Counted from the stretch's first letter, positions 1 through 14,701 are shown. The stretch is DNA of 64,000 bases from an uncultured archaeon (GCA_963799775.1 CAWCYD010000002.1:32001-96000); one strand, 5' to 3'. Notes: a model not told the origin generated them from the letters alone. Numbers and translations: made by a program.

Positions 1-2
1 GC

Positions 3-434
3 TTCGCTGAGATTAAGATTCTCCGTGAAATCGACTCTGACCCGAAGGTAAACTCCGAAATCAAGATTCTCCACCCCTTCGGCGGGCGCGCGGAGTTTGG
101 TTTCAGGTGCGACGTCAATGCCGATGCGGACCCCGACTTGCGGTGCGACGCGCACCTCCTCCCGTTCAGGGATTGCACCTTTGATGTGGTGTTCCTTGAC
201 CCGCCATATAACGAGCAATACTCAAAAGCTCTCTATGCAGCCGGCAAGCCCAGGTTCAAGAAGTACACGGCCGAGAGTGTCCGGGTGTTGAAGCCGGAAG
301 GCTACATGGTGATGTATCACTACATGGCGACGCCGAGGATAGACGGCACCCGGCTTGTCAAGCGGATATTCATCGAGACCCGCCTCTGGCACAAACTCCG
401 AGTAGTCCATATCCACAGAAAGGAGAAGGCGTAA
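3..434 (+). CDS. small amino-(N6A/N4C) DNA methyltransferase-like protein, 5'-truncated by window edge
   Basis: Frame is open from base 3: ILHPFGG (motif I-like) ... FDVVFLDPPYN (DPPY catalytic motif); sits directly upstream of vsr/dcm. Confidence 0.7.
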   Translation, partial: FAEIKILREIDSDPKVNSEIKILHPFGGRAEFGFRCDVNADADPDLRCDAHLLPFRDCTFDVVFLDPPYNEQYSKALYAAGKPRFKKYTAESVRVLKPEGYMVMYHYMATPRIDGTRLVKRIFIETRLWHKLRVVHIHRKEKA

Positions 435-439
435 GAGCA

Positions 440-904
440 GTGAGGCGGGGAGGATACAGCACCGCCGTCGTTGGCCGCTCACCTCCCCCGACCTCGGAGG
501 CGGTGACGCGGGTGATGCGGTCAAACAAGAGCACGGGCACATCGCCGGAACTGGCGCTGGGGCGCCTGCTGAGAAAGAAGCCCGCGCGTTCGAGGTTACC
601 AGGGAGGCCAGACTTCGTCTACAGCAGGGCGAGGCTGGCCGTGTTCGTCCACGGGTGCTGGTGGCACAGATGCCCCGTGGAGGACTATCCTCTGCCAAAG
701 ACGCACACGGATTTCTGGCGTAGGAAGTTCGAGAGGAACGTCGAGAGAGACCGACTGAACGCAGGGGCGCTTAAAGCGATGGGCTGGAATGTTATCGTCG
801 TGTGGGAACACGAGGTCAAGCGAGACCCAAAGGGGACGGAGCGGAGAGTCAAGGGGCTCGCCGTTGAATTATTAAGCGAGCGCGAGGCCACCCGAGGCAA
901 CTGA
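440..904 (+). CDS. vsr: very short patch repair endonuclease Vsr
   Basis: MRSNKSTGTSPE, LPGRPDFV, AVFVHGCWWHRCP, FWRRKFERNVERD, GWNVIVVWEHE; adjacent to a C5 MTase. Confidence 0.92.
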   Translation: MRRGGYSTAVVGRSPPPTSEAVTRVMRSNKSTGTSPELALGRLLRKKPARSRLPGRPDFVYSRARLAVFVHGCWWHRCPVEDYPLPKTHTDFWRRKFERNVERDRLNAGALKAMGWNVIVVWEHEVKRDPKGTERRVKGLAVELLSEREATRGN

Positions 905-906
905 CA

Positions 907-2212
907 ATGGCCAAGCCGCGAGAGTTCGAAGCGTTTTCCCTCTTCTCAGGGGCGGCAGGTCTCGACTACGGCCTAGAGACGGCGGGCAGGCTCCTAGGCG
1001 ACGACCTCGGCCCTGTTTCGGCGCGGTTCCGGATACGCGGCTATGTCGAGTCCGAACCCGTAATGCAGGAGACCCTCCGGCTGAACATCGCCAGAGGGGT
1101 GCTGAGCCCGGGGAAGGTCTACGGCGACATAGCTGAGATCGCAGACCCGCGGGGGGTCGTCGAGGAGTGTGGCGTTCGAGGCGAGCTCCCCCTCCTCTGC
1201 GGAGGGCCTCCCTGCCAGCCGTTCAGCACCGCGGGGCGCAGGGGGACTGTCCAGGATCCGCGCGGCTCGGTGATTTGGGAGTTCGTGCGATTCGTCCGTG
1301 AGGTCCAGACCCCAGTTCTTCCTGATGGAGAACGTGCGCGGCCTCATCTCGGCGGCCGTTCGCCACAGACCCATAAAGCAGCGGGGTAGGGGCAACCCGC
1401 CGCTGGCGCCAGAGGAGGAGCCCGGTTCCGTGTTGCGGTTGCTGCTCGCTGACTTCGAGGCCCTGGGATACCACGTCGACGTGTTCGAGGTGAACGCCGT
1501 GAACTACGGCGCGCCCCAGTTGAGGGAGCGAGTCCTGCTCATGGGCAACAAGTATAACATGACCCTGGACTTCCCAGCCCCCGCATACGGGAAAGCCGGC
1601 ACTCTCCTACGGCGGTGGCGGACGCTGGGCGAGGCGCTAGAGGGCCTCAAGGACGGAGCGGGAGAGGTGCTCGACTTCTCGCCGCGCAAGAAGAGGTATC
1701 TCGCCATGATACCGCAGGGTGGGAACTGGAGGTCGATGCCCGTCGCCACGCAGAAGGAGTCCATGGGCTCCGCCTGGTATGCCAAGGGCGGCCGGTCGGG
1801 CTGGTGGCGCAGGCTGTCCTTCGACCTCCCAAGCCCGTGCCTCGTCACGATGCCGAACCACTCCGGGACGGCCCTCTGTCACCCGACGGAGGTCAGGGCG
1901 CTGAGCCTCAAGGAATACCTGAGGGTGCAGGAGTTACCCGACGACTGGGAAGTGGCGGGAACCCTGGCGGAGCGATACAAGCAGGTCGGGAACGCCGTGC
2001 CGGTAAGGCTCGGCGAGGTGGCAGGAAAGGTCATAGGTGACGCGCTCGCGAGCCTCGGCGACGTGGAGGAGGTCAGGCCAGGCCGGAAGGTGGTCCCTAG
2101 CGCGAAGGTCTACGTGACTTCGCACGTGAGGACGCGCCGCTGGTATGAGAACGGCAAGGCCGTCGTGAGGACTGCGCCCCAAGCCCCGCCCGTCGCGGGG
2201 CTGGCAACCTGA
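907..2212 (+). CDS. dcm: DNA (cytosine-5)-methyltransferase, frameshift near 1305
   Basis: SLFSGAAGL (motif I), GGPPCQPFS (IV), ENVRGL (VI), PQLRER (VIII), YKQVGNAVP (X), split across ORFs 907-1389 and 1298-2212. Confidence 0.92.
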
Positions 2213-3294
2213 GCGCTTCCAGAGCGAGGGCGAGCATCGAGCAGAAGGCACAAGAAGACTTCTACGCAAGGGTAAAGAAGGCCGCGCCTTTCGACCCTGC
2301 TGAGTTCGCCTCCCTTCTCCAACGGCTCGACGAGCGGAGGGTTAGGGATATCGCGGAACGACTCTCAAGGTATCTGGAGGCCAAACTGCCCGCGACCGTA
2401 AGACGCAGGGATGGCCTGAAGGACTACAAGCTCAACCCATACGTGCTGCTCACCTCTGCCGCGACTCGCAGGCTCAACGAGCCGCGGCGGTTCGCGTCAT
2501 TCATCTTCGACGCGAAGTTCTACGCCGGTCTGGAGACCTCGTTCGGCAAGTCCATAGAGTCGGAGCTGTTGGCGCTGTATGAGTGGAAGAAGCCGGAGGA
2601 AAAGACCGCAGAGGAGAATTCGCTGAAGGGGCTGCCAAGGGTCGAGAAGGCCAGGAGGCGCGTCAACTCCGTGTGGAGAGAGGTGGACAGCAGCCGGATG
2701 GTGGGGAACAGGCGCTTCTTCCTCACGGTGAAGTCGGGCCCCAACTGCATAAACGACACTCAGGTCGACAACATGCAGGAAGCCATCGCCAAGCACCATT
2801 TGACATGGCTTGACCAGACCCGAAGGTCTCTTCCGGACGTTCGAGGCATAGACGTGGTTGTCGGGCTGACATACGGAACCACGACAACCACGAACAACAA
2901 GGAGAACCAAATACTCGTCAAGCTCTTGGAGCATGGGTTCAGGGAGACCAAGGAAAACGGGGTGCTCGTCTCAGGCAAGAACGATGCTGTAAGGGTCTAC
3001 CGCCGCATCGGGCGGGACTTCTGGGCACTAGTGGGCTCTCCGGCTGCGCCCGCGAGGGGCGGGCACACGTTCCTTGAGGTTCTATTGGGCCTCGCGCTTG
3101 CGTTGAAGCAGGGGAGCCTAACGGAGACCATGGAGAAGATGGTGGACCACAAGATAGACGAGCTGGCAGTGGCAATCTCCTCCCTAAAGCTCGAGGGGCA
3201 ACGGCTGCCCGACTGGGTATCCCAGACCTTCGGGGCACAAGAGCTGAGCGTTTTCATCGACGCGGTCTCCTCGTTCTACGACGGCGGCCTTTAG
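2209..3294 (+). CDS. type II restriction endonuclease (EcoO109I/PmeII-like)
   Basis: NPY...LETSFGKSIE...EVD...TVKSGPNCIN; frame is open back to a CTG overlapping the dcm stop (CTGA); cognate position after the MTase. Confidence 0.65.
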   Translation: MSASRARASIEQKAQEDFYARVKKAAPFDPAEFASLLQRLDERRVRDIAERLSRYLEAKLPATVRRRDGLKDYKLNPYVLLTSAATRRLNEPRRFASFIFDAKFYAGLETSFGKSIESELLALYEWKKPEEKTAEENSLKGLPRVEKARRRVNSVWREVDSSRMVGNRRFFLTVKSGPNCINDTQVDNMQEAIAKHHLTWLDQTRRSLPDVRGIDVVVGLTYGTTTTTNNKENQILVKLLEHGFRETKENGVLVSGKNDAVRVYRRIGRDFWALVGSPAAPARGGHTFLEVLLGLALALKQGSLTETMEKMVDHKIDELAVAISSLKLEGQRLPDWVSQTFGAQELSVFIDAVSSFYDGGL

Positions 3295-3315
3295 TCCATC
3301 CTGGATGGGCTTTTT
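3294..3315 (+). terminator. hairpin plus T-tract terminator
   Basis: GTCCATC-CTG-GATGGGC followed by TTTTT right after the REase stop. Confidence 0.5.
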
Positions 3316-3366
3316 GTGGTTAAGGAGGGATGGCCCTGGACACCGAATCTTGCCGGCGGAAGGCAA

Positions 3367-3660
3367 CTATACTGCGACAAGCAACCAGGCACTGAACACG
3401 AGGAGTAGGAACGCCACTATCGCGACAGAAATCGACGGGGCGCCGCGGATTTCTTCCCAACCCTGCCACAGGCCGTAGAGCGAGAGCGCGAGGAACCCCA
3501 GATCCAGAAGGACCGCAACGGCGGGGAAGAGCGCGTCGAGGAACACCTGGACGCAGAACCAAGCGACGAACGACTTCATCGCCTCCGGAATGCCGGTGAG
3601 CACCCCGTTCAAGACGGTGTCAATCCCGTCGAAGAAGTCGTCGATGACCGACATGGGCAA
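3367..3660 (-). CDS. small membrane protein
   Basis: 97-aa ORF with 2-3 hydrophobic segments. Confidence 0.55.
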   Translation of the reverse strand: MPMSVIDDFFDGIDTVLNGVLTGIPEAMKSFVAWFCVQVFLDALFPAVAVLLDLGFLALSLYGLWQGWEEIRGAPSISVAIVAFLLLVFSAWLLVAV

Positions 3661-3763
3661 ACGTGGTGCAGGGTACTAAAAAAAATTTTTGCGCCGAGTC
3701 AAGGCTCTTTTGGCGCAATGACGTTGGTATTCGAGATTCCCGCAAGGATTTAAGATTCGCATC

Positions 3764-5083
3764 GTGAAAGGAAGGGCGGTGTCAACCAGTCAAGCGACGT
3801 TGCGCGAAGAGACTGCCGATGAGATGCTCCAGCTAATCGAACGAAGGAAGACAACCTATGGCAAGGCGAAGATGACCTCTGCCTTAGTGAAGGTGGGCGG
3901 AAGCTGGGAGAATTACCTCACTAGGTTTGTCGTCCTCTCTTCCGAGGATGCCAAGCAATACCAGAGGACGATGAACTACGGGGATCTCTTGCTGAAGGAG
4001 ACCGTCGTTGACATCCCGAAAGTCGAGTCGATGTTGCAGTTGTTATCACATGGGAATCAACTCACACTTCCTGGGTTGGATGCACGACCGATTGATGGTG
4101 ACCTCCAGAGATACCCCGCATCGCCGTCCTATTATCAGCCCAGCAATGATCCAGGATTCAATCTTGAATGGCCGGGCAATGTATTCGTGGTCGCGCCGAA
4201 ATCCAACCGGCAGGTTCAGCTTCCTAATGGTCCAACCTGCGCCATAGACGAGCCGCTTTACGATTCCGGGAATGCCGCGGTGAATGATTTCTTTGGATTC
4301 CTCGCGAGCAACGTCCCCTGGAGGGGATCTGCGATATTCATGCTTCCAAACTACAAAGCCAAGATAACCCAAATCAAGCTCGGCTCCACGAGAATTACGG
4401 TCACTTTTGCTCTCGGGAAGGACTCGCGCTACTCTGACCTGCTGGCGAAAATGTATCTTGAGTCCGCCCAAGGCATTGCGCAGAGAGACTTCGAACCGAA
4501 GGAAGGGGAGAACGTGATTCCCATAGGCATCGCGCCGCACCTGTACGTAATCTATCTGTTCTCGAAGGCCGGGGGAGAGGTTGTGGATTTCCGGCGCTTT
4601 GGAGCTGGATGGACCAACCTGAGAGACGTGGTGATTGAAACAACTCCCGACAACATCGAGCAGATAATCAGCCGCGGCGAAAATAACCGCGTTGAGTTCA
4701 AACTGGCAATTCCCAAGAAATGGGAAGACTTCGCAGAAACAGCAGTCTCGATGTCAAACTCCAGCGGAGGGATTATTTTCCTGGGAGTGGACGACGACAC
4801 TACTGTCGTGGGCGTCGACGATCCGAAAATCGTTGACACCATAACTGATGCGCTAAGGAATCTCAGCGACCCGTGGATTAATCCGAAGATAACCACCCAG
4901 GTGGTTCAGGGCAAGACCGTAGCGGTCGTTGAAATCAGTCAGGGGACGAGAAAGCCGTACGTATTGAGGGCTAGAGGCCCGATGGTTCGGATTGGCGCGA
5001 CCGATAGAATCGCGACGCGGGATGAAATAGTCGCTCTCGCAACGAATCAGAGTCCGTGGACCTCAGCACCTGGAGTCGTCTGA
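3764..5083 (+). CDS. Schlafen/AlbA_2 domain protein with uncharacterised N-terminal region
   Basis: C-terminal GENNRVEFK...AETAVSMSNSSGGIIFLGVDDD...KPY...RIGATDR is the AlbA_2 signature. Confidence 0.8.
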   Translation: MKGRAVSTSQATLREETADEMLQLIERRKTTYGKAKMTSALVKVGGSWENYLTRFVVLSSEDAKQYQRTMNYGDLLLKETVVDIPKVESMLQLLSHGNQLTLPGLDARPIDGDLQRYPASPSYYQPSNDPGFNLEWPGNVFVVAPKSNRQVQLPNGPTCAIDEPLYDSGNAAVNDFFGFLASNVPWRGSAIFMLPNYKAKITQIKLGSTRITVTFALGKDSRYSDLLAKMYLESAQGIAQRDFEPKEGENVIPIGIAPHLYVIYLFSKAGGEVVDFRRFGAGWTNLRDVVIETTPDNIEQIISRGENNRVEFKLAIPKKWEDFAETAVSMSNSSGGIIFLGVDDDTTVVGVDDPKIVDTITDALRNLSDPWINPKITTQVVQGKTVAVVEISQGTRKPYVLRARGPMVRIGATDRIATRDEIVALATNQSPWTSAPGVV

Positions 5084-5090
5084 GAGCAAC

Positions 5091-5615
5091 TCAATCTTCG
5101 AAGCACGGCCCAAGACTCGACCATGACTCTTCTGACCATTCCACGTCCGGGCGGTCCTTGTATCTCACTGCTACGTGGAATCTTATGAAGATTCCGAATC
5201 GGTAGCCCAACTCCTTTTGATAGTTTGAAATCTTCCGCTTGTCGCACTTTCCTTCGCTTTCGGGATTCGTGTCCTTCTTCGCCTCTATGATTAGGAAATT
5301 GTTCTTGGTTCCTCTTTCATGGACGACTATGTCGGGATAGACGGTCTCGCCAAGGTCGTCATCAGATGATACACTTTTGGGCTTCAGATGGAGTCTCTTT
5401 GTTTCATATTCATCTCTGTTGTACTCGCAATCGACATCCCAATCATGGAAATACTCCTCGAGATGGATGGCGAACTTGTGGGTTATCGATCGCTCGTTGG
5501 CGTCCTTCTCAAGAAGCTTCCAGTCGTTCTCGCGAAACTTGACCCACGCGCCTTCAATTGCCCGCTCGACATACCCTTTGTCATGGTCGGTCGGCACAGC
5601 ATTTCGTCTTTTCAT
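5091..5615 (-). CDS. PD-(D/E)XK-like nuclease, hypothetical
   Basis: NERSITHKFA...VDCEYNR...YPDIVVH...LIIEAKK. Confidence 0.6.
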   Translation of the reverse strand: MKRRNAVPTDHDKGYVERAIEGAWVKFRENDWKLLEKDANERSITHKFAIHLEEYFHDWDVDCEYNRDEYETKRLHLKPKSVSSDDDLGETVYPDIVVHERGTKNNFLIIEAKKDTNPESEGKCDKRKISNYQKELGYRFGIFIRFHVAVRYKDRPDVEWSEESWSSLGPCFED

Positions 5616-5755
5616 AGACCGTCAAACGGACCATTAAGCTTTGGCATTGAAGGCATACGTGCCAAAGATGAGGTGGCCTGAACCGCGCGGAGGGGCCGGT
5701 GCATTTCAGCTCGTAACTGGCCGAGACCTCTGCGTCAACGTTCGAAGAAGAAAAA

Positions 5756-5825
5756 TGGGGAGGGTGCCCGCTACGGTTCCGCCGCGGGCCCTGCCGGGCC
5801 CGAACCCAGGTACAGCTTCGCTCCC
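5756..5825 (-). ncRNA. candidate structured small RNA (70 nt)
   Basis: GC-rich island; ends pair (GGGAG/CTCCC); internal GGTTC/GAACC and CGGGCCC-GGCA-GGGCCCG stems; TTAAG ~30 nt upstream; ends CCA followed by TTTTTCTTCTT. Confidence 0.4.
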
Positions 5826-5942
5826 GAAAGCCTAAATCTCTTCGATGAATCTTAACCCTAGATGGGATATTCAAACCTGCTCGAGTGGCTTAAACCGTTA
5901 AAATATTCCAGCACGAAACGGCTTTACGGGTCTTTTTTGCTT

Positions 5943-6013
5943 GACAGGTAGAAGTTATCTTCTACCTCTACTTCGACATTTAGACGATATGTAGAAGTCA
6001 ACTTCTACATATC
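5943..6013. repeat. double-palindrome dispersed element, copy 1
   Basis: GACAGGTAGAA-GTTATC-TTCTACCT...CTTCGACATTTAG..GATATGTAGAA-GTCAAC-TTCTACATATC. Confidence 0.9.
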
Positions 6014-6235
6014 CGCACCTGAATTTCCTCGCTGGAATCAGGGAAATCGACGGTTGTTCAGCCGAGGCCCTAACGTCTCCGGAGCGGCAGAACTGAAGGG
6101 GTGTCACCGCATCATGCCTAGTTCGAATCGATTCATCTTGCTCTAGTGTTGACGAACTAGACAAGAGTTTCGGAGCGACCTAGAAAGCGAATAAATTCAA
6201 TCTGGCATGGAGGAGATAAAAATCCCTGGTCTTTC

Positions 6236-6478
6236 TCATCCCAAACTTTTTTTGGCGGTTGCCTGAATTTCGGGAATCTTTGGCTTGACATAAAGCTCCA
6301 AGGCCCTCTTCAAGTTCAAGAATTCCACTCCAACAAGCCGTTCGTTCTCACCGTAATCGAATAGGACATCCAATGAATCCACTTTCCCTTCTCGGGTCTT
6401 CTTCACGTGTCCAGCGCTCAATTTGATATAAGCTGCATTGGCATCCACATCAAACTCGACTTTGGGCGTCTTGTCCAT
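6236..6478 (-). CDS. DUF2283-type antitoxin-like protein
   Basis: FDVDANAAYIKL...DVLFDYGENERLVGVEFLN. Confidence 0.8.
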   Translation of the reverse strand: MDKTPKVEFDVDANAAYIKLSAGHVKKTREGKVDSLDVLFDYGENERLVGVEFLNLKRALELYVKPKIPEIQATAKKSLG

Positions 6479-6485
6479 AGCTAAA

Positions 6486-6698
6486 TCATTGGTAATACGC
6501 AGTCTTCACCTTAAAATCATTTCCTCGGCGATAAGCAATCACCACTAGAATCTTGTTACCGAAGTGACGCTCGAATGCCCATTTGTCGGGTTCGTCATAC
6601 AACCTGGTTGAGCTCGTCGGCCGCTTGAGAGCTCGCAGAACTTCGGATTTCGAGATTCGTCTCTTACCCATCCTGTCCTCCGCATGTTTCGTATACAC
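6486..6698 (-). CDS. DUF4258 / RelE-like toxin
   Basis: YTKHAEDRMGKRRIS...EV...L...VKTAY; paired with DUF2283; true start may lie slightly upstream. Confidence 0.8.
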   Translation of the reverse strand: MYTKHAEDRMGKRRISKSEVLRALKRPTSSTRLYDEPDKWAFERHFGNKILVVIAYRRGNDFKVKTAYYQ

Positions 6699-6944
6699 TA
6701 CGTTGGAAGCGGAGTGACTCGCGTTCTCAGCCTGTTCTTCAATAATCGGAACACTAGATAACCTATGGTGCTCTTGTCAGACTTGTCGGATCATTTTCTC
6801 AAGCTGGAACGCAAACTGTTTCAGTACCCCCAATCTCTCCGCACCTTGGTGGCGAATGTGATGACTCGCTGGGTACTCGACTATCGCAATTGCGTCGATG
6901 ATCTTCCGCGACGTGTTTGAGCTAGGAGATGCCGGATTGGGCAT

Positions 6945-7015
6945 GATAGGTGGCAGTTAACTTCTACCTGAACTTCGACATTTAGATGATATGTAGAAGT
7001 TGACTTCCACATATC
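6945..7015. repeat. double-palindrome dispersed element, copy 2
   Basis: GATAGGTGGCA-GTTAAC-TTCTACCTGAACTTCGACATTTAGAT-GATATGTAGAA-GTTGAC-TTCCACATATC. Confidence 0.9.
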
Positions 7016-7085
7016 GCCTGGCCCCCTGGGAACCGAAAAGGTTAGGGTTCGGCGAAGCGCTAGCGATTGGCGTAGCTTCTTCGTG

Positions 7086-8534
7086 CTAGGGCTTCAAAGG
7101 CAAGTCCTTAGGCCCGCCTCTGAGAGAGAGCGAGGTGGCGACGCCGACGCCGGCGAAGACCGCCGCAGCTAGAAAGGCGTACCGAAACGCGGTGACGACC
7201 TCGGCGCTAGGTGCCGCGACTCCCATGCCCAGGGTCACCAAGCCTATGACCGAGACGGCAACGGCTAGGCCGATGGGCCCTCCTACCTGCCTCGACGTAT
7301 TGATAAGCCCAGAAGCAATCCCCTCTTCCCCGGGCTTGGCAGCCGAGAGCCCAACGATGCTCGATGCCGTCGAAGCGATGGAAGAACCCACAACGGCAAT
7401 GAGCTGTGCTGGGAGGATCACCGTGAAGTAGTTCGAGGTCAACGAAATCTGGGTGAAGAGGAGCATCCCGGCCGTGAATGTCGCCATCGCTCCAATCATG
7501 ACGTCCTTGGCCCCCACCCGCCTAACCAGCCTCGGCGCCGCGAACCCGCCCAAGAATGCGTAGAGAAGCGAACCGGGCAAGAGCGCCGCTCCCGCGTAGA
7601 TGGGCGAGTAGGAGCGCAAGACCTGCAGATAGGTGGTAATGACGAACACCATCAGGACCATGCAGGCAAAGACAATCAGCATGGTAGCGTTGGCAAAGAA
7701 GATCTTCCTGCGCCTGAGGAACCCCAACGGCATCAGCGGTGCGGGGGAGAAGTGCTCAAGAGCGATGAAACAGGCGAGGACTCCGGCAGCGAGGGCGAAG
7801 ACCAGGTAGGTCGTGTAGGAAGGGTCCCCGTTGCCGACGCCCGTCAAGGCGTAGACCAATAGCATCAGCCCCCCTGTTACAGAGACCGCTCCAGGCAGAT
7901 CGAGGGTCGCGTGCTTCCTCTCCTGTCCCCTCGGGTCCGGGACGAATCTGATCGCGAGTAGGGCTATCAAGACACCTATGGGGACGTTGACGAAGAATAT
8001 CCACCTCCAGCCGAGCTCCTGGGTCAGGACTCCGCCCAGCACGATTCCGGCCGAGAACCCCGATGCGGCGACCGCGGTGAAGATGCCCAGGACCTGGTTC
8101 AGCCTTCCCAGGGGCGCGAATATCCTGACTATCATGGCCAGTCCCGTGGCCGAACAGAGGGCCGCACCGATGCCCTGCACGACCCTGGCGGCTATCAGGA
8201 TCTGCTCTGACGGTGCAAGTCCACCCGCGAGAGATGAGAGAGAGAAGACGACCAACCCGACCATGAACAGCGTCTTTCGGCCATACAGGTCCGAGGCGCG
8301 GCCGCTCAGCAAGAGCAGGCCTGCGAACGTGAGGCCGTAGGCGCTGACTATCCACTGGAGGTCAGGCAGAGACATCTGGAGGTCAGTCCGTATGGTTGGC
8401 AGAGCTATCTGGACGATTGAGAAGTCTAGCACAACCATGAACTGCGCAGTAACTAGGAGTCCCAGAACTAGTCCAAGCCGTCGCGGAGGACTATTTGCGG
8501 GAGGTTCCTCAGAGGGCAAAAAATCTCGAACCAC
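7086..8534 (-). CDS. MFS drug-efflux transporter (DHA2/EmrB-like)
   Basis: QFMVVLDFSIVQIALPTI, GRASDLYGRK, WRWIFFVNVPIG; ~14 hydrophobic segments. Confidence 0.92.
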   Translation of the reverse strand: MVRDFLPSEEPPANSPPRRLGLVLGLLVTAQFMVVLDFSIVQIALPTIRTDLQMSLPDLQWIVSAYGLTFAGLLLLSGRASDLYGRKTLFMVGLVVFSLSSLAGGLAPSEQILIAARVVQGIGAALCSATGLAMIVRIFAPLGRLNQVLGIFTAVAASGFSAGIVLGGVLTQELGWRWIFFVNVPIGVLIALLAIRFVPDPRGQERKHATLDLPGAVSVTGGLMLLVYALTGVGNGDPSYTTYLVFALAAGVLACFIALEHFSPAPLMPLGFLRRRKIFFANATMLIVFACMVLMVFVITTYLQVLRSYSPIYAGAALLPGSLLYAFLGGFAAPRLVRRVGAKDVMIGAMATFTAGMLLFTQISLTSNYFTVILPAQLIAVVGSSIASTASSIVGLSAAKPGEEGIASGLINTSRQVGGPIGLAVAVSVIGLVTLGMGVAAPSAEVVTAFRYAFLAAAVFAGVGVATSLSLRGGPKDLPLKP

Positions 8535-8585
8535 AGGCGCTATACTTAGTATAGTTTATAAATCGATAAGGGAGAGAAAGTATAG

Positions 8586-9044
8586 TTGGAATACATCCAA
8601 GGCGAGCGGGAACGGGGTTCAGACGAGAGCGCCCTGCTCCCGTCTGCGAGTTTCAACCATTGCCCGATAACCATTTCCGCCGGGCTGCTCGGGAAGAAGT
8701 GGACGATGCTGATCCTTCGGGACATAGGGATGCGCAACATCCAGCGCTTCAACCGCCTCCTCCAATCGGTGCGGGGCATCACCCCCCGCGTGCTTTCGCA
8801 GCGCCTCAAGGAGCTCAATCAGGAGGGATACATCGAGTGCGTCGAGGAGCGGTCCCCCACTGTGGTCCGATGGACCCTGACCGAGAAGGGAAGGGACACG
8901 CTTCCAATCCTCATGAGCTTCATAGCCTTCGGCTCGAAGTGGTATGCCGACCAGGTCTTCCATGACAAGAAGCCAAGGACTCTCAGCAACCTCTTCCCGA
9001 CTCCTCAGGCTAGGGAAGTCATGGAAAGGTTCACCCGGCCCTAG
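8586..9044 (+). CDS. HxlR-family winged-helix regulator
   Basis: CPI...LLGKKWTMLILRD...RFNRL...GITPRVLSQRLKEL...LTEKG; divergent from the MFS gene. Confidence 0.88.
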   Translation: MEYIQGERERGSDESALLPSASFNHCPITISAGLLGKKWTMLILRDIGMRNIQRFNRLLQSVRGITPRVLSQRLKELNQEGYIECVEERSPTVVRWTLTEKGRDTLPILMSFIAFGSKWYADQVFHDKKPRTLSNLFPTPQAREVMERFTRP

Positions 9045-9147
9045 CGAGCCCATAGTTCCCATCGTGAACGTTTCGCCATTTTGGAATACCACAACCATGA
9101 AGGCAAATGGCAAGAGTTATATGCTAACTAAATCACTTAGTGACCAA

Positions 9148-9375
9148 ATGGCAACGGTCAAAGTGGACGAAAAGACATACGCCGAGCTGAATCGTATCGC
9201 AGGGTACCTCAGAGCGGCAAGAGGGAGGCCGGTGCCGATAGACGAGGTCATTCGGGAACTCCTCAGCAAGAAAAGGGCTTCGGAATTCATCGGATCGTGG
9301 AAGATGAGCGACGAGGAAGAGAGGCGAGTCTTCGGCGAACTGCATGAGGCGTGGAAGAAATGGAAACAAGCCTAG
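9148..9375 (+). CDS. antitoxin (VapB-like)
   Basis: MATVKVDEKTYAEL...DEVIRELL...FIGSW; overlaps the start of a PIN toxin. Confidence 0.7.
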   Translation: MATVKVDEKTYAELNRIAGYLRAARGRPVPIDEVIRELLSKKRASEFIGSWKMSDEEERRVFGELHEAWKKWKQA

Positions 9376-9768
9376 TCCTGGACACCGATGTCCTCGTCTC
9401 TGACCTTCGGGGCATGGACCTCCATTCTGAAGGAACTAGAAGGCAAAGATCCAGCCACGACCGTGGTTAATGCCTTTGAGTTGTTCCACGGCGCCTACAA
9501 GTCAAAGCAGTCTTCTGCAAATCTGTCCGCCACTCGGGGCCTCCTTGGGAGCCTGAGACTCGTCGACTTGAGCGTGAAGGCTGCCGAGAGAGCTGGAGAA
9601 GTGCTGGCTCAGGCACAAAAGTCCGGACAAAATATCGAAATCCGAGACCTCCTGATTGGGTGCATCGCGAGAGAGGAAGGGCTGTCGCTGCTCACGCACA
9701 ACGTCAAGCACTTTCAAAAGATTCCGGGTTTGACGGTAGTAGATGCTGCCCGGTACGCTGATAGGTAG
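9360..9768 (+). CDS. vapC: PIN-domain toxin VapC, frameshift near 9420
   Basis: METSLVLDTDVLV ... TTVVNAFELFHG ... DLLIGCIA ... LLTHNVKHF. Confidence 0.85.
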
Positions 9769-9840
9769 AAGTTAACTTCTACCTGAACTTCGACATTTAG
9801 GCGATAGGTAGAAGTTAACTTCAACATGAACTTCGACATC
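9760..9840. repeat. double-palindrome dispersed element, copy 3 (two tandem 43-bp units)
   Basis: GATAGGTAGAAGTTAACTTCTACCTGAACTTCGACATTTAGGC then GATAGGTAGAAGTTAACTTCAACATGAACTTCGACATC; contains the vapC stop codon. Confidence 0.9.
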
Positions 9841-10088
9841 TGAGGACGCAAAGTCAAGGTCGATTCGGACCGGCTAGGAGACGGAGCAGGGTCAACCCCT
9901 GTCTTTGTCCCCTCGCGGTCGCCTCGGAGCACCTTTCAGAGTCTTCGGCACCGGCTGGGGCAGAACTGCTTCAGAGAATCGGAACTTAACTGGCCTTCGT
10001 AGCGTTCCATGCAAAGTCAGTTAACCGCCTGAGACCGCTCGGTGCCATGAGTTCCAGCACTCAGTCGAGCGTCAGGAGGGAGACACGC

Positions 10089-10514
10089 ATGGCGACGCAC
10101 GTCAGCCCCTACCTGAGGTTCAAGGGGAATTGCACCGAGGCAATGAATTTTTACGAGAACTGCTTCGGTGGAGACCTGAATCTCACGACCATCGCTCAAT
10201 CGCCGATGGCAGGTCAAATGCAAGGAGAAGATCCGAAGCACGTCTTCCAAGCCAGCCTGACGAGCGGCGGCATCGAGCTGCTAGGTTCGGACATGGCTCC
10301 GCGGGAGGGTCTGAAGAAAGGCAACGCGATGGCGCTCGCGTGTCAGTGTGCGAGCGAACAAGAGCTGAGGAACCTCTTCGCAAAGCTCTCCGCCGGTGGC
10401 AAGGTGAACTCCCCCGTGGACAAGGCAGCGTGGGGCGGACTCTACGGCCAACTCGTCGACAAGTTCGGGAACGAGTGGATGCTCACCTTCATGGAGCAGC
10501 GACACCGGCCCTAG
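10089..10514 (+). CDS. VOC/PhnB-family protein
   Basis: PYLRFKGNCTEAMNFYENCFGG...WGGLYGQLVDKFGNEWML. Confidence 0.88.
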   Translation: MATHVSPYLRFKGNCTEAMNFYENCFGGDLNLTTIAQSPMAGQMQGEDPKHVFQASLTSGGIELLGSDMAPREGLKKGNAMALACQCASEQELRNLFAKLSAGGKVNSPVDKAAWGGLYGQLVDKFGNEWMLTFMEQRHRP

Positions 10515-10718
10515 CGGGAAGCTCTCTTCTTCCTCCGGGGTGCCAGTCGAAGATTCCTTCTCATCCCTCTCTTGAGAGGGCGGAGCTTCTCTGGGTCCAT
10601 GACGTCCTCGAGGATTCCCGGCCCGACGGTCCCGAAGTACGCCTGGAGACTCGCGATCTATTGCTCCACCGTCGCAGGGAAATGGAAGGCGGAGGCCCAT
10701 GTCGGGGTTCGGAGACCC

Positions 10719-12199
10719 TCAGGCCAGGGACGAGGGACGCACTATCGTGAATCCGGCATTCGAATGATTGGAGGACTTGGACTCGATCGCGTCGGCCCAC
10801 TTCCTTGTGACCTCGATGAGCTCGCCTCGCAGGTCTTCACCCGTCAAGCCCATCCTGCGTATCTCTTCTATTCCATCCGCCAACTCGTTGAGGCCTAGGA
10901 CATCCCTGATCCACTTCTCGTAATCCCTCCTCTTGGCGTGGAACTCGATCGAATCGATGGGCGACCTTTCGAGGGCCTCTATGAATCCCTCGACGGAGGT
11001 CGCAAGTATCCCCGTGTAATGCCCGAAGTTGGTGAAACAGTAGAACGCGGTCTCTAGAGGCGAAGCTATGATTCCAGATACCACCTCATCCGAGAGGATC
11101 GATACGCTCGGCCAGATCCTGCTCCCGCTCAGGACGGTCGCCCTGTCGCCGATCACGCACCCGGGACCGATTATCGATCCGCTCACGGAGGCATTGTCGT
11201 GGACCACAACGGTCTCGCCTATCACGCTATCTGAGATGGTGCAGTTCCGCCCAACATACACCCTCTCCATTATGGCGCTGCGCTCGATCGAGCTGCCCGA
11301 AGAGATCAGCGCGTTCCTCTTCACCGAGCAATCTCTACCTATCTTCACCCTTTCCTCGATCGTGACGTCTCTCTCTATGATGACCGGCTCAGCAATCTGG
11401 ACCCCCCGTGCTATTGAGGCTGACCCGTGAGTCATCGCGACGTTCGGCGACGATGTCTGCGGACCTGGTTGCGGTCGGCTCGTCGTCTCCAACACCCATT
11501 TCATCCCGCCCAGGAATCCCTCGAGATTTCCGATGTCCACCCAGAACGCGTCCGAGGCGAAACCATACAACTTCTTGTGGAGCCTCAAGAGGTGCGGAAA
11601 GAGGTCCTTGGCAAAATCCCACTTGTTGTCAGACAGGTAGTCTATCGATTCCGGCTCCATCACATAGAAGCCTGTGCTGACGAGGTTGCTTCTCGCTTCT
11701 CCCCTCTTCGGCTTCTCTTGGAACTCTGTGATCATGTTCTTGTCATCGAGCAGCGCTACGCCGTACTCCGAAGGGTCGGGCACCCTTGTCAGCACGATGG
11801 TCGTCAGGGAACCGACCTTGTGATGAAAGTCTACCGCCTCGCGAAGCGGAATCTCGGTCAAGGTGTCCGCCTGGGCAATCAAGAAAGTTTCGTCTAGCAG
11901 GTGTTCGACAAGTTTGAGACACCCGGCCGTCCCGATATGAAGCCCTTCTGGTTCGACCGCATAGGTGATACGCACGCCGTAGCTCGAGCCGTCACCGAGA
12001 TAGTCCATGATCTGGTCCCTCTGGGGACCCTGACCACCGTGACGACCTCGTCAAAGCCCTCTTTTGCAAGGCGCGTGAGCACGTAGTGGATGGAGGGCTC
12101 CGGACCCAACGGGATCATCGGTTTCGGCCGCGTGAAGGTTAGCGGTCGCAGCCGCGTCCCTTCCCCGGCCGCAAGGACCACCGCTTTCGCCCCACTCAC
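10719..12199 (-). CDS. NDP-sugar pyrophosphorylase (mannose-1-P guanylyltransferase-like) with LbH repeats and C-terminal DUF5752-like domain, frameshift near 12025
   Basis: AVVLAAGEGTRLRPLT..RPKPM, GTAG, EFQEKP, FWVDIG, hexapeptide repeats; C-terminus FYCFT...SIEFHAKRRDYEKWIRDVLG. Confidence 0.85.
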
Positions 12200-12243
12200 C
12201 CATCGAGAACGAGTTGGCTCCGCTCTAATTAATGGTTGCTGTC

Positions 12244-13026
12244 CTAGGCGCTCTTTGCGAAATTGCCGCTTCCGTCGGGTAATAGGTCGAAGCGGATCTT
12301 TCCGTTCTCCATCGCCAAGTTCTGGACGACGTAGTCGGAGGAGTAGGTCTTCGAGAGGGCGCCCCTGACCACCCCCACCAGGAACTGGTCCACGACCCCT
12401 TTCTTGGAGCCCGATGTCACAGGCTGGTCGATTACTACCTTGAGCCCCCTGAAGTCCCCTGAGAGCTCCAGCACTCCCAGCCCCACGGCGCCGAAGTATG
12501 CCTTTAGATTCGCGATCTCCTGCTCCACCGGCGCAGGGACGTGGAAGAGCGTCCTTATGCTGTCCATGATCTCCTCTCCCACCGTGACGCCTTGGTTGTG
12601 GAGTATCACTCCACCCGGGGTCCCGAAGGTCTTGAGGATCGAGTCGATCAGCGCCGCCCAACCCTCCGCTGAGAGCACGAAGACCCGCGTGTGGCCCGAG
12701 CGGGTCAGCGGGAACATCATGGTCTCGAACTTCACATCCGTCCTCGCTTCGATCCGAGCGTCCTTGACAAAGTCCAGTTTCTTGAGCGACTCCACAAGTT
12801 CCTTTGGCTTGACGGTCGCCCCGGCCATCTCCAAGTAGAAGATGTCGTAGCCCGTGCGCATATCGTCGGAGCATTGCAGACTGCCCGAGAGGATGTCGAT
12901 GTTCTTCTCTCCCATGATCGTCGCGAGCTTGGCGAGAACCATTGGCTTGGAGTCGACGGAGATGTAGAGCTCATAGACCTGGCGACCCTCGGGCGACGAT
13001 ATGCCCAGTGACCGAGTTTGCCTCAA
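12244..13026 (-). CDS. ACT-domain plus V4R-like protein
   Basis: N-terminal SKPMVLAKLATIMGEKNIDILS (ACT-like); C-terminal FG..GG.IL...G...G, GLGVLE, FLVGVVRGAL (V4R-like). Confidence 0.65.
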   Translation of the reverse strand: MRQTRSLGISSPEGRQVYELYISVDSKPMVLAKLATIMGEKNIDILSGSLQCSDDMRTGYDIFYLEMAGATVKPKELVESLKKLDFVKDARIEARTDVKFETMMFPLTRSGHTRVFVLSAEGWAALIDSILKTFGTPGGVILHNQGVTVGEEIMDSIRTLFHVPAPVEQEIANLKAYFGAVGLGVLELSGDFRGLKVVIDQPVTSGSKKGVVDQFLVGVVRGALSKTYSSDYVVQNLAMENGKIRFDLLPDGSGNFAKSA

Positions 13027-13275
13027 ATGGTCCGTATTGCGCTAGAGGAAATATAAGTAATTCGTGCGAATTCTCAAATCCATGTTAACTTTGGCGGCCT
13101 TGTGTGTTGACAATTGTCAGCCCGGCTGAAGGATGGCGCCCTTGCTCTCAGAATTCGAACTCGAGTTGGGCTTTTAAGAATTTCCAGCTCTTCAGGGCTG
13201 TTCTTGGTCCTCGATTACTGCGGCATCCTTATGCGTCTCCCTCGAAGCAACGTGTAGCTCTTGCCAGTAACGACA

Positions 13276-13990
13276 ATGTCGCCTCAGAAGGGCGCGGAAT
13301 TCGAGTCGCTGGACCAAGTGGCTGCGGCCATCGTGGAATGCAGGCGCTGCCCGAGGCTTGTCAGGTATCGGGAGTCGCTCCCGAAACGCAAGTCCTTCGG
13401 GTCGGAGGAGTACTGGCGGAGGCCGGTTCCCGGGTTCGGAGACCCGGAAGCCAGACTCGTGATCATCGGTCTCGCGCCAGCTGCGCATGGCGGGAACAGA
13501 ACGGGGAGGGTGTTCACAGGGGACGAGTCGGGAAAATTCCTGGTCAGGGTTCTCTTCGAGGCGGGTTACGCAAGCTCGCCCATTTCGTCTGGGCGAGCTG
13601 ACGGCTTGGTCTATTGCGACTGCTACGTCTCCGCCGCGGTGAGGTGCGCGCCGCCTGAGAACAAGCCGACCACGAAAGAGTTCGAGAACTGCAGCGAGTA
13701 TCTCGACTCCGAGCTAAGGCTTCTCCCGAACGCGAGGGCCGTGCTCGCGCTTGGAAAAGGCGGCCTTCGACTCCTATCTCGCCTACGCCCGCAGCAGAGG
13801 GGCAGACACGAAAGGCATGGGATTCTTCCATGGGGCCGTATACGCGCTCAGGAGTCTCCCCACTCTCTATGGCTCGTATCACCCAAGCCCTAGGAACACT
13901 TTCACGGGTAAGCTGACGAGGAGTATGCTGCTCTCCCTGCTCACGAGAATAAAGAAGGGTTCGGAGTCTTTCGACTCCGGGGCGATGTAG
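13276..13990 (+). CDS. uracil-DNA glycosylase family 5, frameshift near 13757
   Basis: CRRCPRL, GLAPAAHGGNRTGRVFTGDESG, RCAPPENKP, SYHPSPRNT. Confidence 0.9.
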
Positions 13991-14033
13991 CGCTCGTCGC
14001 GAGCCTTTCGCGAGGAGTCTCAGCTCTAGCGCG

Positions 14034-14528
14034 CTATCGGGTGGAGTTAGACCCGCTCGACGTCGAGTTGGTCTCGAACATCGATGTGGAGGTTGTCACC
14101 GAACTCGAAGTTGTCGTGGAGCTCGTGCAGCTGGTCTCAATCGAGACGGTGCCGGTGCCGTTACTGGTCACGGAACTTGTAGACGTCGAATTGGAGGTCA
14201 AAGTGGCGCCGCTGGCCGGGACGCTCCCTGAGCTAGAAACAGTGCTCGTGGTCAACGTCGAGCTTGGCGTGGTAGAGTTGCAAGGCGAGCAAGGTGTGTA
14301 GGTGCCTGCACATGGCGTGGCCTTTGAGAGGTTGCTCGTGTTGGCGGTTGTGAATGGATTGGCTATGCTCGTAGTGTTGTTGGGTAGCGTACTGTTCGTG
14401 GTGGTGCTGTTGGGGTGGCTCGAGGCGAGATACACGGCGACTCCCGCGATTATGATGATAACAATCACGACTGCCGCTCCTGCTGACGCTGCGAGGCCCT
14501 TCCTGCCCTCCGTGACGTAGCTGGTCAA
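14034..14528 (-). CDS. membrane-anchored Ser/Thr-rich protein
   Basis: RKG followed by hydrophobic N-terminus, then low-complexity S/T with a few Cys. Confidence 0.6.
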   Translation of the reverse strand: MTSYVTEGRKGLAASAGAAVVIVIIIIAGVAVYLASSHPNSTTTNSTLPNNTTSIANPFTTANTSNLSKATPCAGTYTPCSPCNSTTPSSTLTTSTVSSSGSVPASGATLTSNSTSTSSVTSNGTGTVSIETSCTSSTTTSSSVTTSTSMFETNSTSSGSNSTR

Positions 14529-14701
14529 GAAATCTCAAGTTCCAAAATGCCGACGTGCATTATATGCAAATACAGAGTCCGTATTAGATGAATGCTACAA
14601 ATCGGAACACGGAAGGCAGACCACAGTATCGGAGCAGTTCCCTCCAGAAGGGGACAAGCTAACAATAAATCGACGTGTGCTGATGACAGCGGCAGAGGAC
14701 C

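Follow-up and report, generated by a model that had tools for sequence, protein, structure and literature searches.

What are the palindromic repeats that stand around small toxin–antitoxin and transporter genes in the chromosome of a soil archaeon, and what kind of recombination would have placed them there? The question is raised by a 64,000-nt stretch of DNA (here called the window; coordinates are counted from its start) from an uncultured soil archaeon of the order Nitrososphaerales, whose assembly (G000) comprises 2.47 Mb in three contigs and is 81.7% complete. A palindromic element of ~75 bp occurs three times in this window. A preliminary description, made from the sequence of the window, had taken the three copies for recombination sites and had pointed to the Xer/dif system as a model. 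The repeats are most probably attachment-site (att) junctions of mobile elements that use a tyrosine integrase to insert into the last codons of glnA, the gene for glutamine synthetase.

Three Direct Repeats with Evenly Spaced Palindromes

A repeat search of the window returned one family of direct repeats with three members (5939-6013, 6941-7015, and 9756-9830), the other two copies being 85% and 81% identical to copy 1. This agrees with the preliminary description, which had reported an element of ~71 bp in three copies of the same orientation. Each copy contains the palindrome type GTAGAAGTTAACTTCTAC twice. The 18-bp palindromes begin at 5948/5991, 6950/6993, and 9765/9808, and their spacing is exactly 43 bp in every copy, as had been stated before. 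The preliminary description had also given each copy two 28-bp palindromes of 11-6-11 geometry; in copies 1 and 2 this stands for the second palindrome, and it stands for no other, the first palindromes being 18–20 bp long. The palindrome centers GTCAAC (5997) and GTTGAC (6999) are indeed reverse complements of each other. A single change separates either one from the symmetric GTTAAC found elsewhere, and both variants are present in relatives; the pair may be due to chance or may mark orientation.

The motif GTAGAAGTYRACTTCNAC, with two mismatches or fewer allowed, gives 12 matches in the window (six sites on both strands), compared with an expectation of 0.02 from shuffled sequence, and 12 matches were reached in 0 of 100 shuffles. 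The three repeats are real and highly non-random. Across the whole genome the same motif gives 14 matches, i.e., the 12 at these sites and two poor, 2-mismatch matches on another contig, while a reversed-pattern control gives 1+1 matches. The preliminary description had named such a scan as a check on its own proposal. With the genome matches amounting to the six palindromes of this locus and two poor ones, a dispersed repeat of the MITE (miniature inverted-repeat transposable element) or REP (repetitive extragenic palindrome) kind was rejected, as was the regulon of a transcription factor.

The Repeat Core Is the End of glnA

The link between the repeats and glnA was first met outside the genome of interest. 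When the motif of the preliminary description was sought in 201 genomes of the order, only single, near-chance matches were found outside G000, two of them in G104 and G097, where the palindrome lies directly 3' of an open reading frame (ORF) later recognized as glutamine synthetase. In these two genomes, which belong to another genus of the family, the same left arm follows glnA (loci L012 and L013); the integrase there is without residues ~183-364, which make up the catalytic core.

In the window, the preliminary description had remarked on an extra direct box in every copy. This box is the last codons and stop codon of glnA (...YFDI*). The core ACTTCGACAT with its stop codon is found at the glnA end and in three of three window copies. 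The single glnA of the genome lies outside the window at G000:C2:19069-20214, on the same strand and 17.7 kb upstream of copy 1. It ends in CTCTACTTCGACAT, which is followed by the palindrome CTAGCAGTTAACTGCTAC, supplying the stop codon, and then by CTGTCAAGG. This last sequence is the inverse of CTTGACAGG, which precedes copy 1, and a terminal inverted repeat is formed by CTTGACAGGTAG at copy 1 and its inverse, CTACCTGTCAAG, at the left attachment site (attL). The glnA reading frame is intact after the insertion and still ends in ...YFDI*. The window contains no tRNA gene that could have served as the target.

A gene for a tyrosine recombinase of 430 amino acids (C2:20245-21537) starts 30 bp after the glnA stop codon and 16.4 kb upstream of copy 1. 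The protein matches PF00589 (E 1.6e-18) and the PHROG integrase family (E 2e-27), and its R, HxLR, and Y residues align with the XerA structure 5HXY (E 6e-8). It reaches 74.2 bits against the archaeal XerA model NF040815 (cut-off 220), and 41.5 and 21.5 bits against the integron-integrase models TIGR02249 (cut-off 265) and NF011946 (cut-off 435), respectively. The window itself holds no match to PF00589, so the preliminary description was right to find no recombinase gene there; the gene lies just outside.

Proposed Integration and Tandem Accretion Behind glnA

The att site of the mobile DNA (attP) would consist of the 10-bp core ACTTCGACAT, which is the same sequence as the end of glnA, set between two palindromes of the GTAGAAG-N4-CTTCTAC type, which are presumed to be the arms bound by the integrase. 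The chromosomal target (attB) would be the bare 3' end of glnA with no palindrome. Strand exchange within the core would place the element behind glnA, and because the element supplies a new stop codon, glnA would stay intact. Repeated use of the same core would then produce a tandem array. As proposed, this array runs from glnA and attL through a 17.7-kb integrase/ParA/restriction–modification element (element E) to copy 1, a 1.0-kb toxin–antitoxin module, copy 2, a 2.8-kb MFS/HxlR/VapBC module, copy 3 with an empty unit, and finally the native flank (Table 1).

Because the same core would be reused in tandem, each window copy would be an attP-like hybrid of right arm, core, and left arm, and the form predicted for junctions made by shared-core tandem integration fits all three copies. 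We hold with good confidence that each copy is a composite att junction in which the 10-bp core unites two palindromes, a right arm from the element to the left and a left arm from the element to the right. The small modules have both arms and no integrase, resembling the remnants known as cis-mobilizable elements (CIMEs), and would at most be moved by the neighboring integrase.

Table 1. Coordinates and contents of the repeat copies, the DNA between and around them, and the att-bounded modules of related genomes
Feature	Position	Strand	Size	Contents
Element E, right-hand 6 kb	1..5969	+		Vsr, split C5 methylase, EcoO109I-like nuclease, Schlafen/AlbA_2, PD-Lambda-3_A homolog (Pfam, PADLOC)
Copy 1	5943..6013	+		E right arm (GACAG and palindrome 5948-5965), core ACTTCGACAT 5970-5979, stop TAG 5981-5983, module 1 left arm (11-6-11 palindrome 5986-6013)
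Module 1	6014..6944	-	~1.0 kb	DUF2283 (6236-6478), DUF4258 (6486-6698), small ORFs; no integrase
Copy 2	6945..7015	+		Module 1 right arm (palindrome 6950-6967), core 6972-6981, stop, module 2 left arm (palindrome 6988-7015)
Module 2	7016..9759	both	~2.8 kb	MFS 7086-8534 (-), HxlR 8586-9044 (+), VapB-like 9148-9375 (+), PIN/VapC 9360-9768 (+); no integrase
Copy 3	9760..9839	+		Module 2 right arm (palindrome 9765-9782), core 9787-9796, then empty 43-bp unit (stop, spacer, palindrome 9808-9825), second core 9830-9839
Native chromosomal flank, start	9840..9880	+		Begins CTGAGGACGCAAAG; resembles flank after last core in G226, G222, and metagenome locus L107
G228 module			1.8 kb	PIN protein and metallo-beta-lactamase-fold protein
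G227 modules				TetR/DUF4386/ADH, then ABC-2 transporter; no PF00589 match among ORFs scanned over the ~10 kb after glnA
G215 module				TetR/DUF998, then ABC transporter
G226 module			2.3 kb	ORFs of unknown kind
G219 module				Luciferase-like monooxygenase
G224 module				AsnC-type regulator and small ORFs
G218 module			10 kb	Cation efflux, ABC transporter, hydrolase
G225 modules				Usp and membrane protein; second with VapBC-like pair (85-amino-acid ORF and PIN), TrmB, SDR

Empty and Occupied Sites in Relatives

The gene glnA was located in 19 of the 23 genomes of the genus, and the glnA 3' ends of 15 relatives were read. In 5 of these 15 the same attL arm is followed by an integrase gene, the product of which is 92% (G222), 96% (G228), 67% (G225), 91% (G156), or 86% (G230) identical to that of G000. 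Counting G000 itself, an integrase stands at the glnA-proximal end in 6 of the 16 genomes read. A different arm type (stop, 7-nt spacer, palindrome) follows glnA in G220, and a third, related left-arm type is found there in G227, G224, and G214. The site is empty, with no arm, in the remaining 6 of 15 (G229, G186, G217, G144, G219, and G218). The integrase is more conserved than glnA (96 versus 88% in G228; 86 versus 74% in G230), a comparison of identities that fits horizontal spread. In G156 (C3:14934-16038) glnA was found in two pieces with an in-frame TGA, and in G230 (L036) two attL copies 170 bp apart across a run of N are probably a scaffolding artifact.

The occupied and empty sites differ precisely at the repeat. 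In G228 the integrase element is 12.8 kb long, and its right end is a palindrome–core–stop–palindrome junction built like the window copies. Among relatives with an empty site, G229 is the closest; there, glnA (93% identical) and the core are followed by different, palindrome-free sequence, and starting 1.4 kb after its glnA, genes of G229 match window genes at 14.7, 21.4, 21.7 (81%), and 25.2 kb (85%), with the order kept. The other side of an insertion is visible in a metagenome contig (L107), where the end of a Schlafen-bearing element, with right arm and core, is joined directly to palindrome-free native flank. Flank of this type also comes after the last core of G226 and of G222, and a diverged form of it follows window position 9840. 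A DNA search of 41 family genomes with the right flank returned sequences too diverged for use. Since the native flank in this contig and the empty sites are palindrome-free, nothing more than the 3' end of glnA serves as chromosomal target, and the palindromes are part of the mobile DNA. The presence/absence breakpoints of relatives fall exactly at the element, in keeping with the central proposal of the preliminary description that recombination sites bracket accessory and toxin–antitoxin modules beside a defense-rich element.

These boundaries also bear on whether the repeats could be regulatory or structural, i.e., operators of a transcription factor, or hairpin terminators that were duplicated together with the glnA 3' region by segmental duplication. 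Perfect palindromes do stand between genes and at gene ends, and a similar palindrome is found after the glnA stop codon in G220. However, the motif is confined to this locus with no genome-wide regulon, the glnA stop-codon segment is always present in the copies, and the copies coincide with the insertion boundaries relative to empty-site relatives. The presence of an integrase at the glnA-proximal end in 6 of the 16 genomes read also argues against a regulatory or structural origin, and we regard it as extremely unlikely.

Probable Position of Strand Exchange

Because the target in uninvaded relatives has no palindrome, exchange would map to the glnA-derived 10-bp core and not to the 6-bp palindrome centers. 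The junctions of G228 suggest the same position. The left part of the junction ends in a variable dinucleotide, CT at attL and GA at the right attachment site (attR). Its right part opens with the stop codon, where the integrase side has CTAG and the other side TTAG. With variation in the dinucleotide left of the core and in the stop-codon base right of it, exchange appears bracketed within ACTTCGACAT. Exchange inside the palindrome centers was considered and rejected; it would need a palindromic attB.

The 11-6-11 geometry, which copies 1 and 2 do show in their second palindrome, had led the preliminary description to the Xer/dif or pdif analogy. Under this explanation, the modules would be of the pdif type, with host XerA acting on the 11-6-11 palindromes and exchange occurring in the 6-bp center. 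The best solved relatives of the linked integrase are, weakly, XerA proteins, and a better XerA-like gene is found elsewhere in the genome (C3:9034-9903, 151 bits). The locus nevertheless departs from such a system in several ways. The palindrome is found here only and mimics no chromosomal dif found in this assembly, and the repeats are direct, not alternating. The linked integrase falls below the XerA cut-off (74 bits versus 220). A full linker (palindrome, core, stop, palindrome) lies between modules, which exchange at the centers would not create, and both the empty attB and the attR of the L107 contig are palindrome-free on the chromosomal side. Recombination of the Xer/dif kind is very unlikely here, and this part of the preliminary description is not supported.

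A Family of Att Sites Across the Genus

A sequence-only covariance model was built from seven repeat copies. At E <=0.01 it finds matches in 16 of the 23 genomes of the genus, the weakest being the glnA ends themselves. At E <=1e-4 there are matches in 15 of 71 sampled family genomes; these fall in 11 of 22 genomes of the same genus, in G000, and in three other genera (1 of 3, 1 of 6, and 1 of 29 genomes). Where the surroundings of the matches within the genus were read, most lie behind glnA or beside native flank of the glnA type; G228 has two far from its glnA, and many matches on small contigs were not placed.

In a catalog of 39 candidate sites, of which about 30 are genuine, the arms are combined in several ways around a constant core. 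For the palindromic left arm, the partner is glnA in G220 and G226 and a right arm in eight junctions; three kinds of right-hand sequence are found joined to right arms. Pairwise identity around the core is 0.80 over the left 0-30 nt and 0.71 over the right 0-40 nt, falling to 0.49-0.54 beyond, values inflated by the choice of sites according to their palindromes. Loci L030, L041, L045, L048, and L040 (G227, G225, and G215) carry another type of right-arm palindrome, GTAGTGGTTAACCGCTAC, and another type of left arm, in which the stop codon precedes CTAGATGTCTGAGTAGATGTAGAACTCG...; these two types dominate in the clade with glnA ~74% identical.

Empty units (stop, spacer, single palindrome, and second core, with no cargo) were observed at window positions 9797-9839, at L049 in G222, and at L030:3203-3250 in G227. 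Copy 3 of the window consists of two complete 43-bp units, and double units like it are found in the same two relatives; those of G000 and G222 adjoin native flank. The empty units may be modules whose cargo went by recombination between their own two palindromes, or they may reflect an old duplication of the target region.

Small Modules Without an Integrase

Both window modules are flanked by att sites, and the integrase-bearing element E abuts copy 1. Neither module (6014-6944 and 7016-9759) has a match to PF00589. The gene calls of the preliminary description (DUF4258/DUF2283, MFS, HxlR, and PIN) are all upheld by Pfam. In module 1, the E-values are 4.1e-10 for DUF2283 and 9.8e-10 for DUF4258, which form a toxin–antitoxin-like pair, and its GC content is 0.48, compared with roughly 0.56-0.66 over most of the window. 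In module 2, the vapC stop codon (TAG, 9766-9768) lies inside copy 3, as had been noted. The arrangement of a VapBC pair and right-arm unit with the stop codon within the right arm is common to G000 and G224 (VapB 64.5%, PIN 55%). The window vapC appears frameshifted near 9416, with the PIN N-terminus LVLDTDVLV read from the ATG at 9360 and the remainder in the frame of an ORF starting at 9388. A related soil contig (run X3) is without one base at 9416, where the reading frame changes. The G224 vapC homolog is also frame-scrambled.

Beyond G000, the same kind of module recurs. In total, 12 att-bounded modules of 1.0-10 kb were collected from nine genomes (two each from G000, G227, and G225, and one each from G228, G215, G226, G219, G224, and G218; Table 1). 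A PF00589 match was found in 0 of the 12 among the scanned ORFs; these were selected with a longest-ORF rule, which small or broken genes may escape. Among the 12 modules read there is also no autonomous relative with a module-type left arm.

A dedicated cassette system is the alternative that these modules bring to mind. The ~75-bp element would be an attC-like site, and the integrase-less modules would be excised singly as circles and recaptured at the glnA core and stop codon by the element-borne integrase acting in trans, making the locus an integron-like platform of the Nitrososphaerales. The number of modules with no recombinase match is in line with this proposal, as is the fact that both arms are retained, with many palindromes still perfect. 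The same left-arm types also stand ahead of unrelated cargo, empty 43-bp units exist, and the cargo is of an accessory nature (transporters, regulators, toxin–antitoxin pairs, and redox enzymes).

Other features of the modules point away from cassettes. No circular or deleted form was seen in the collections searched (see below). The genes lie in both orientations and have their own regulators, unlike integron cassettes, and the longest-ORF rule could have missed a broken integrase. The order of modules in the arrays of G227 and G215 is the same, which suggests inheritance, not shuffling. The closest homolog of the module 2 MFS-HxlR pair (75% and 72% amino acid identity) lies in G228 at C7:741118-743425 (L115), an att-free locus far from the G228 glnA, and the att model has 0 matches in the five loci of relatives that carry such homologs. 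Because the MFS homologs in relatives sit at att-free loci, they lend no support to module mobility. This distribution hints, from sequence comparison, that the module cargo derives from ordinary chromosomal genes. A cassette system is possible and unproven, and we consider it rather unlikely. The modules may be old immobile remnants or cassettes mobilized in trans.

Searches for Free Forms and Points of Doubt

If elements of this family move today, excised forms might be expected in environmental sequence. Scans for the core-plus-arm pattern gave one match in a viral collection, in unrelated coding sequence, and 56 loci in a metagenome collection. Together these 57 loci comprise 5 genuine att copies and 52 stretches of unrelated coding sequence, in many cases one repeated membrane-protein motif. 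For the integrase, viral contigs gave only a 30% partial match.

Several results weigh against accretion by integration at glnA as an account of the locus. No excised circle, empty-site variant of the same strain, or attP-form contig was found in the public soil runs, metagenome, or viral collections, and an integrase-side arm after a right arm, the form expected of attP, is present in 0 of the 5 genuine metagenome att copies. The public runs holding the region are four soil runs with short, low-depth contigs, which contain no joints and no spanning piece and for this reason say nothing on excision; loose contig ends at 5984, 6013, and 9838 show only that att sequence has other flanks in those soils. 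The same-order arrays of G227 and G215 look vertically inherited, and the small modules may therefore have been immobile for a long time. The position proposed for exchange draws on few polymorphisms, and the core of G225 differs by one base between attL and attR, which means that the mapping is not watertight. Finally, with the genome 81.7% complete, further copies or another cognate recombinase could be missing from the assembly.

Element E and the Flanking Genes

Element E has its start at the glnA stop codon (G000:C2:20215), outside the window, and its right boundary is copy 1. Between the integrase and copy 1 it encodes winged-helix proteins, a DnaJ-domain protein, a ParA-like ATPase, Vsr, a C5 methylase, an EcoO109I-like nuclease, a Schlafen/AlbA_2 protein, and a PD-Lambda-3_A homolog. 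It is a plasmid-like "cryptic integrated element" with a defense-rich right end. The C5 cytosine methylase (907-2212) is split into overlapping ORFs (907-1389 and 1298-2212) that cover Pfam profile positions 2-104 and 101-322, which is due to either a frameshift or an assembly error. The homolog of the PADLOC candidate defense protein PD-Lambda-3_A (E 1.5e-38) is a 174-amino-acid ORF at 5091-5874 on the minus strand, with an adjoining partner ORF of 97 amino acids, and sits just inside the right end of E.

To the right of the array, window positions 9841-14700 carry a glyoxalase-family gene, two nucleotidyl-transferase ORFs, and a uracil–DNA glycosylase gene. They lie in the interval from the last core to the first gene in synteny with G229 and are not bounded by any att copy; they may be native and lost in G229 or may represent older island DNA.

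Comparison with Known Systems

The closest setting is found in the integrated elements of the thaumarchaea. Elements described there insert into the 3'-distal part of protein-coding genes; such genes are used by 14 of 68 elements, with glnA not among the targets listed in section 8 of that survey, and tandem reuse of one site is known for tyrosine-recombinase elements (Krupovic et al. 2019, PMC6563490). Element E shares with the cryptic integrated elements of that survey the phylum, a tyrosine recombinase, and plasmid-like cargo of the "cryptic" kind. The NitEve-E2 element is similar in that its direct att repeats include the 3' end of a gene and the element gives a new stop codon (PMC6563490). 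The att repeats reported there are short, e.g., 13 bp, whereas here a 10-bp core is combined with two conserved palindromic arms over ~75 bp, and the array here includes integrase-less modules, unlike the elements as covered in that source (PMC6563490).

Accretion in which integrase-less elements with attL and attR stand in tandem with an integrase element at a gene 3' end has been described for CIMEs with integrative and conjugative elements (ICEs) or integrative and mobilizable elements (IMEs), as in ICESt1/ICESt3 of Streptococcus thermophilus (PMC5704250). In the account given in that review, CIMEs arise by repeated site-specific integration and are in principle mobilizable in cis. The differences are that the host here is an archaeon, that no conjugation genes were seen at this locus, and that the integrase element is gene-proximal, whereas the review describes integration into attR (PMC5704250). 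The modules here are also very small (1-3 kb) and recur in many species, and their mobilization is hypothetical.

A glnA target is known from bacteria. The SPbeta-like Bacillus prophages also use a tyrosine integrase, leave glnA intact, and duplicate part of it at attL and attR (bioRxiv 10.1101/2021.11.22.469490). These are bacterial phages with a 106-bp duplication, and palindromic arms or module arrays do not figure in the description drawn on here (bioRxiv 10.1101/2021.11.22.469490); kinship of the integrases would be conjectural.

Two cassette-like systems of other kinds are similar in part. As in integrons, small accessory and toxin–antitoxin modules with no recombinase inside are bounded by imperfectly palindromic sites. 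However, the integrase here scores 41.5 bits against an integron-integrase cut-off of 265, the site holds the end of a host gene, the module genes lie on both strands with their own regulator (HxlR), there is no attI/Pc platform, and the integrase is 16 kb from the modules. The pdif/Xer-dif modules share 11-6-11 palindromes around toxin–antitoxin and transporter genes; the locus differs from them in its direct repeats, the lack of a matching chromosomal dif in this assembly, a non-XerA recombinase, and exchange that would map to a glnA-derived core.

Implications

The locus can be understood as a family of glnA-targeting integrative elements with tandem accretion at an integration hotspot, a known manner of island building, to which the small recombinase-less gene modules in the array add an unusual twist. 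It would explain how a variable region of ~22 kb, with defense genes, toxin–antitoxin pairs, and an efflux module, was built up behind a core gene of nitrogen metabolism. It also adds glnA as a further protein-gene integration target in the Nitrososphaerota. The att architecture of a 10-bp core between two palindromic arms is unusually legible and could be tested directly by archaeal integrase biochemistry.

For now, the case of tandem accretion is clear but rather ordinary. If the modules prove to be mobile, they would amount to a CIME- or cassette-like system in archaea; we know of no described example, although no dedicated search was made for one. Should the locus be a true cassette platform, it would represent an integron-like accessory array of soil Nitrososphaerales that evolved independently of the bacterial integrons.

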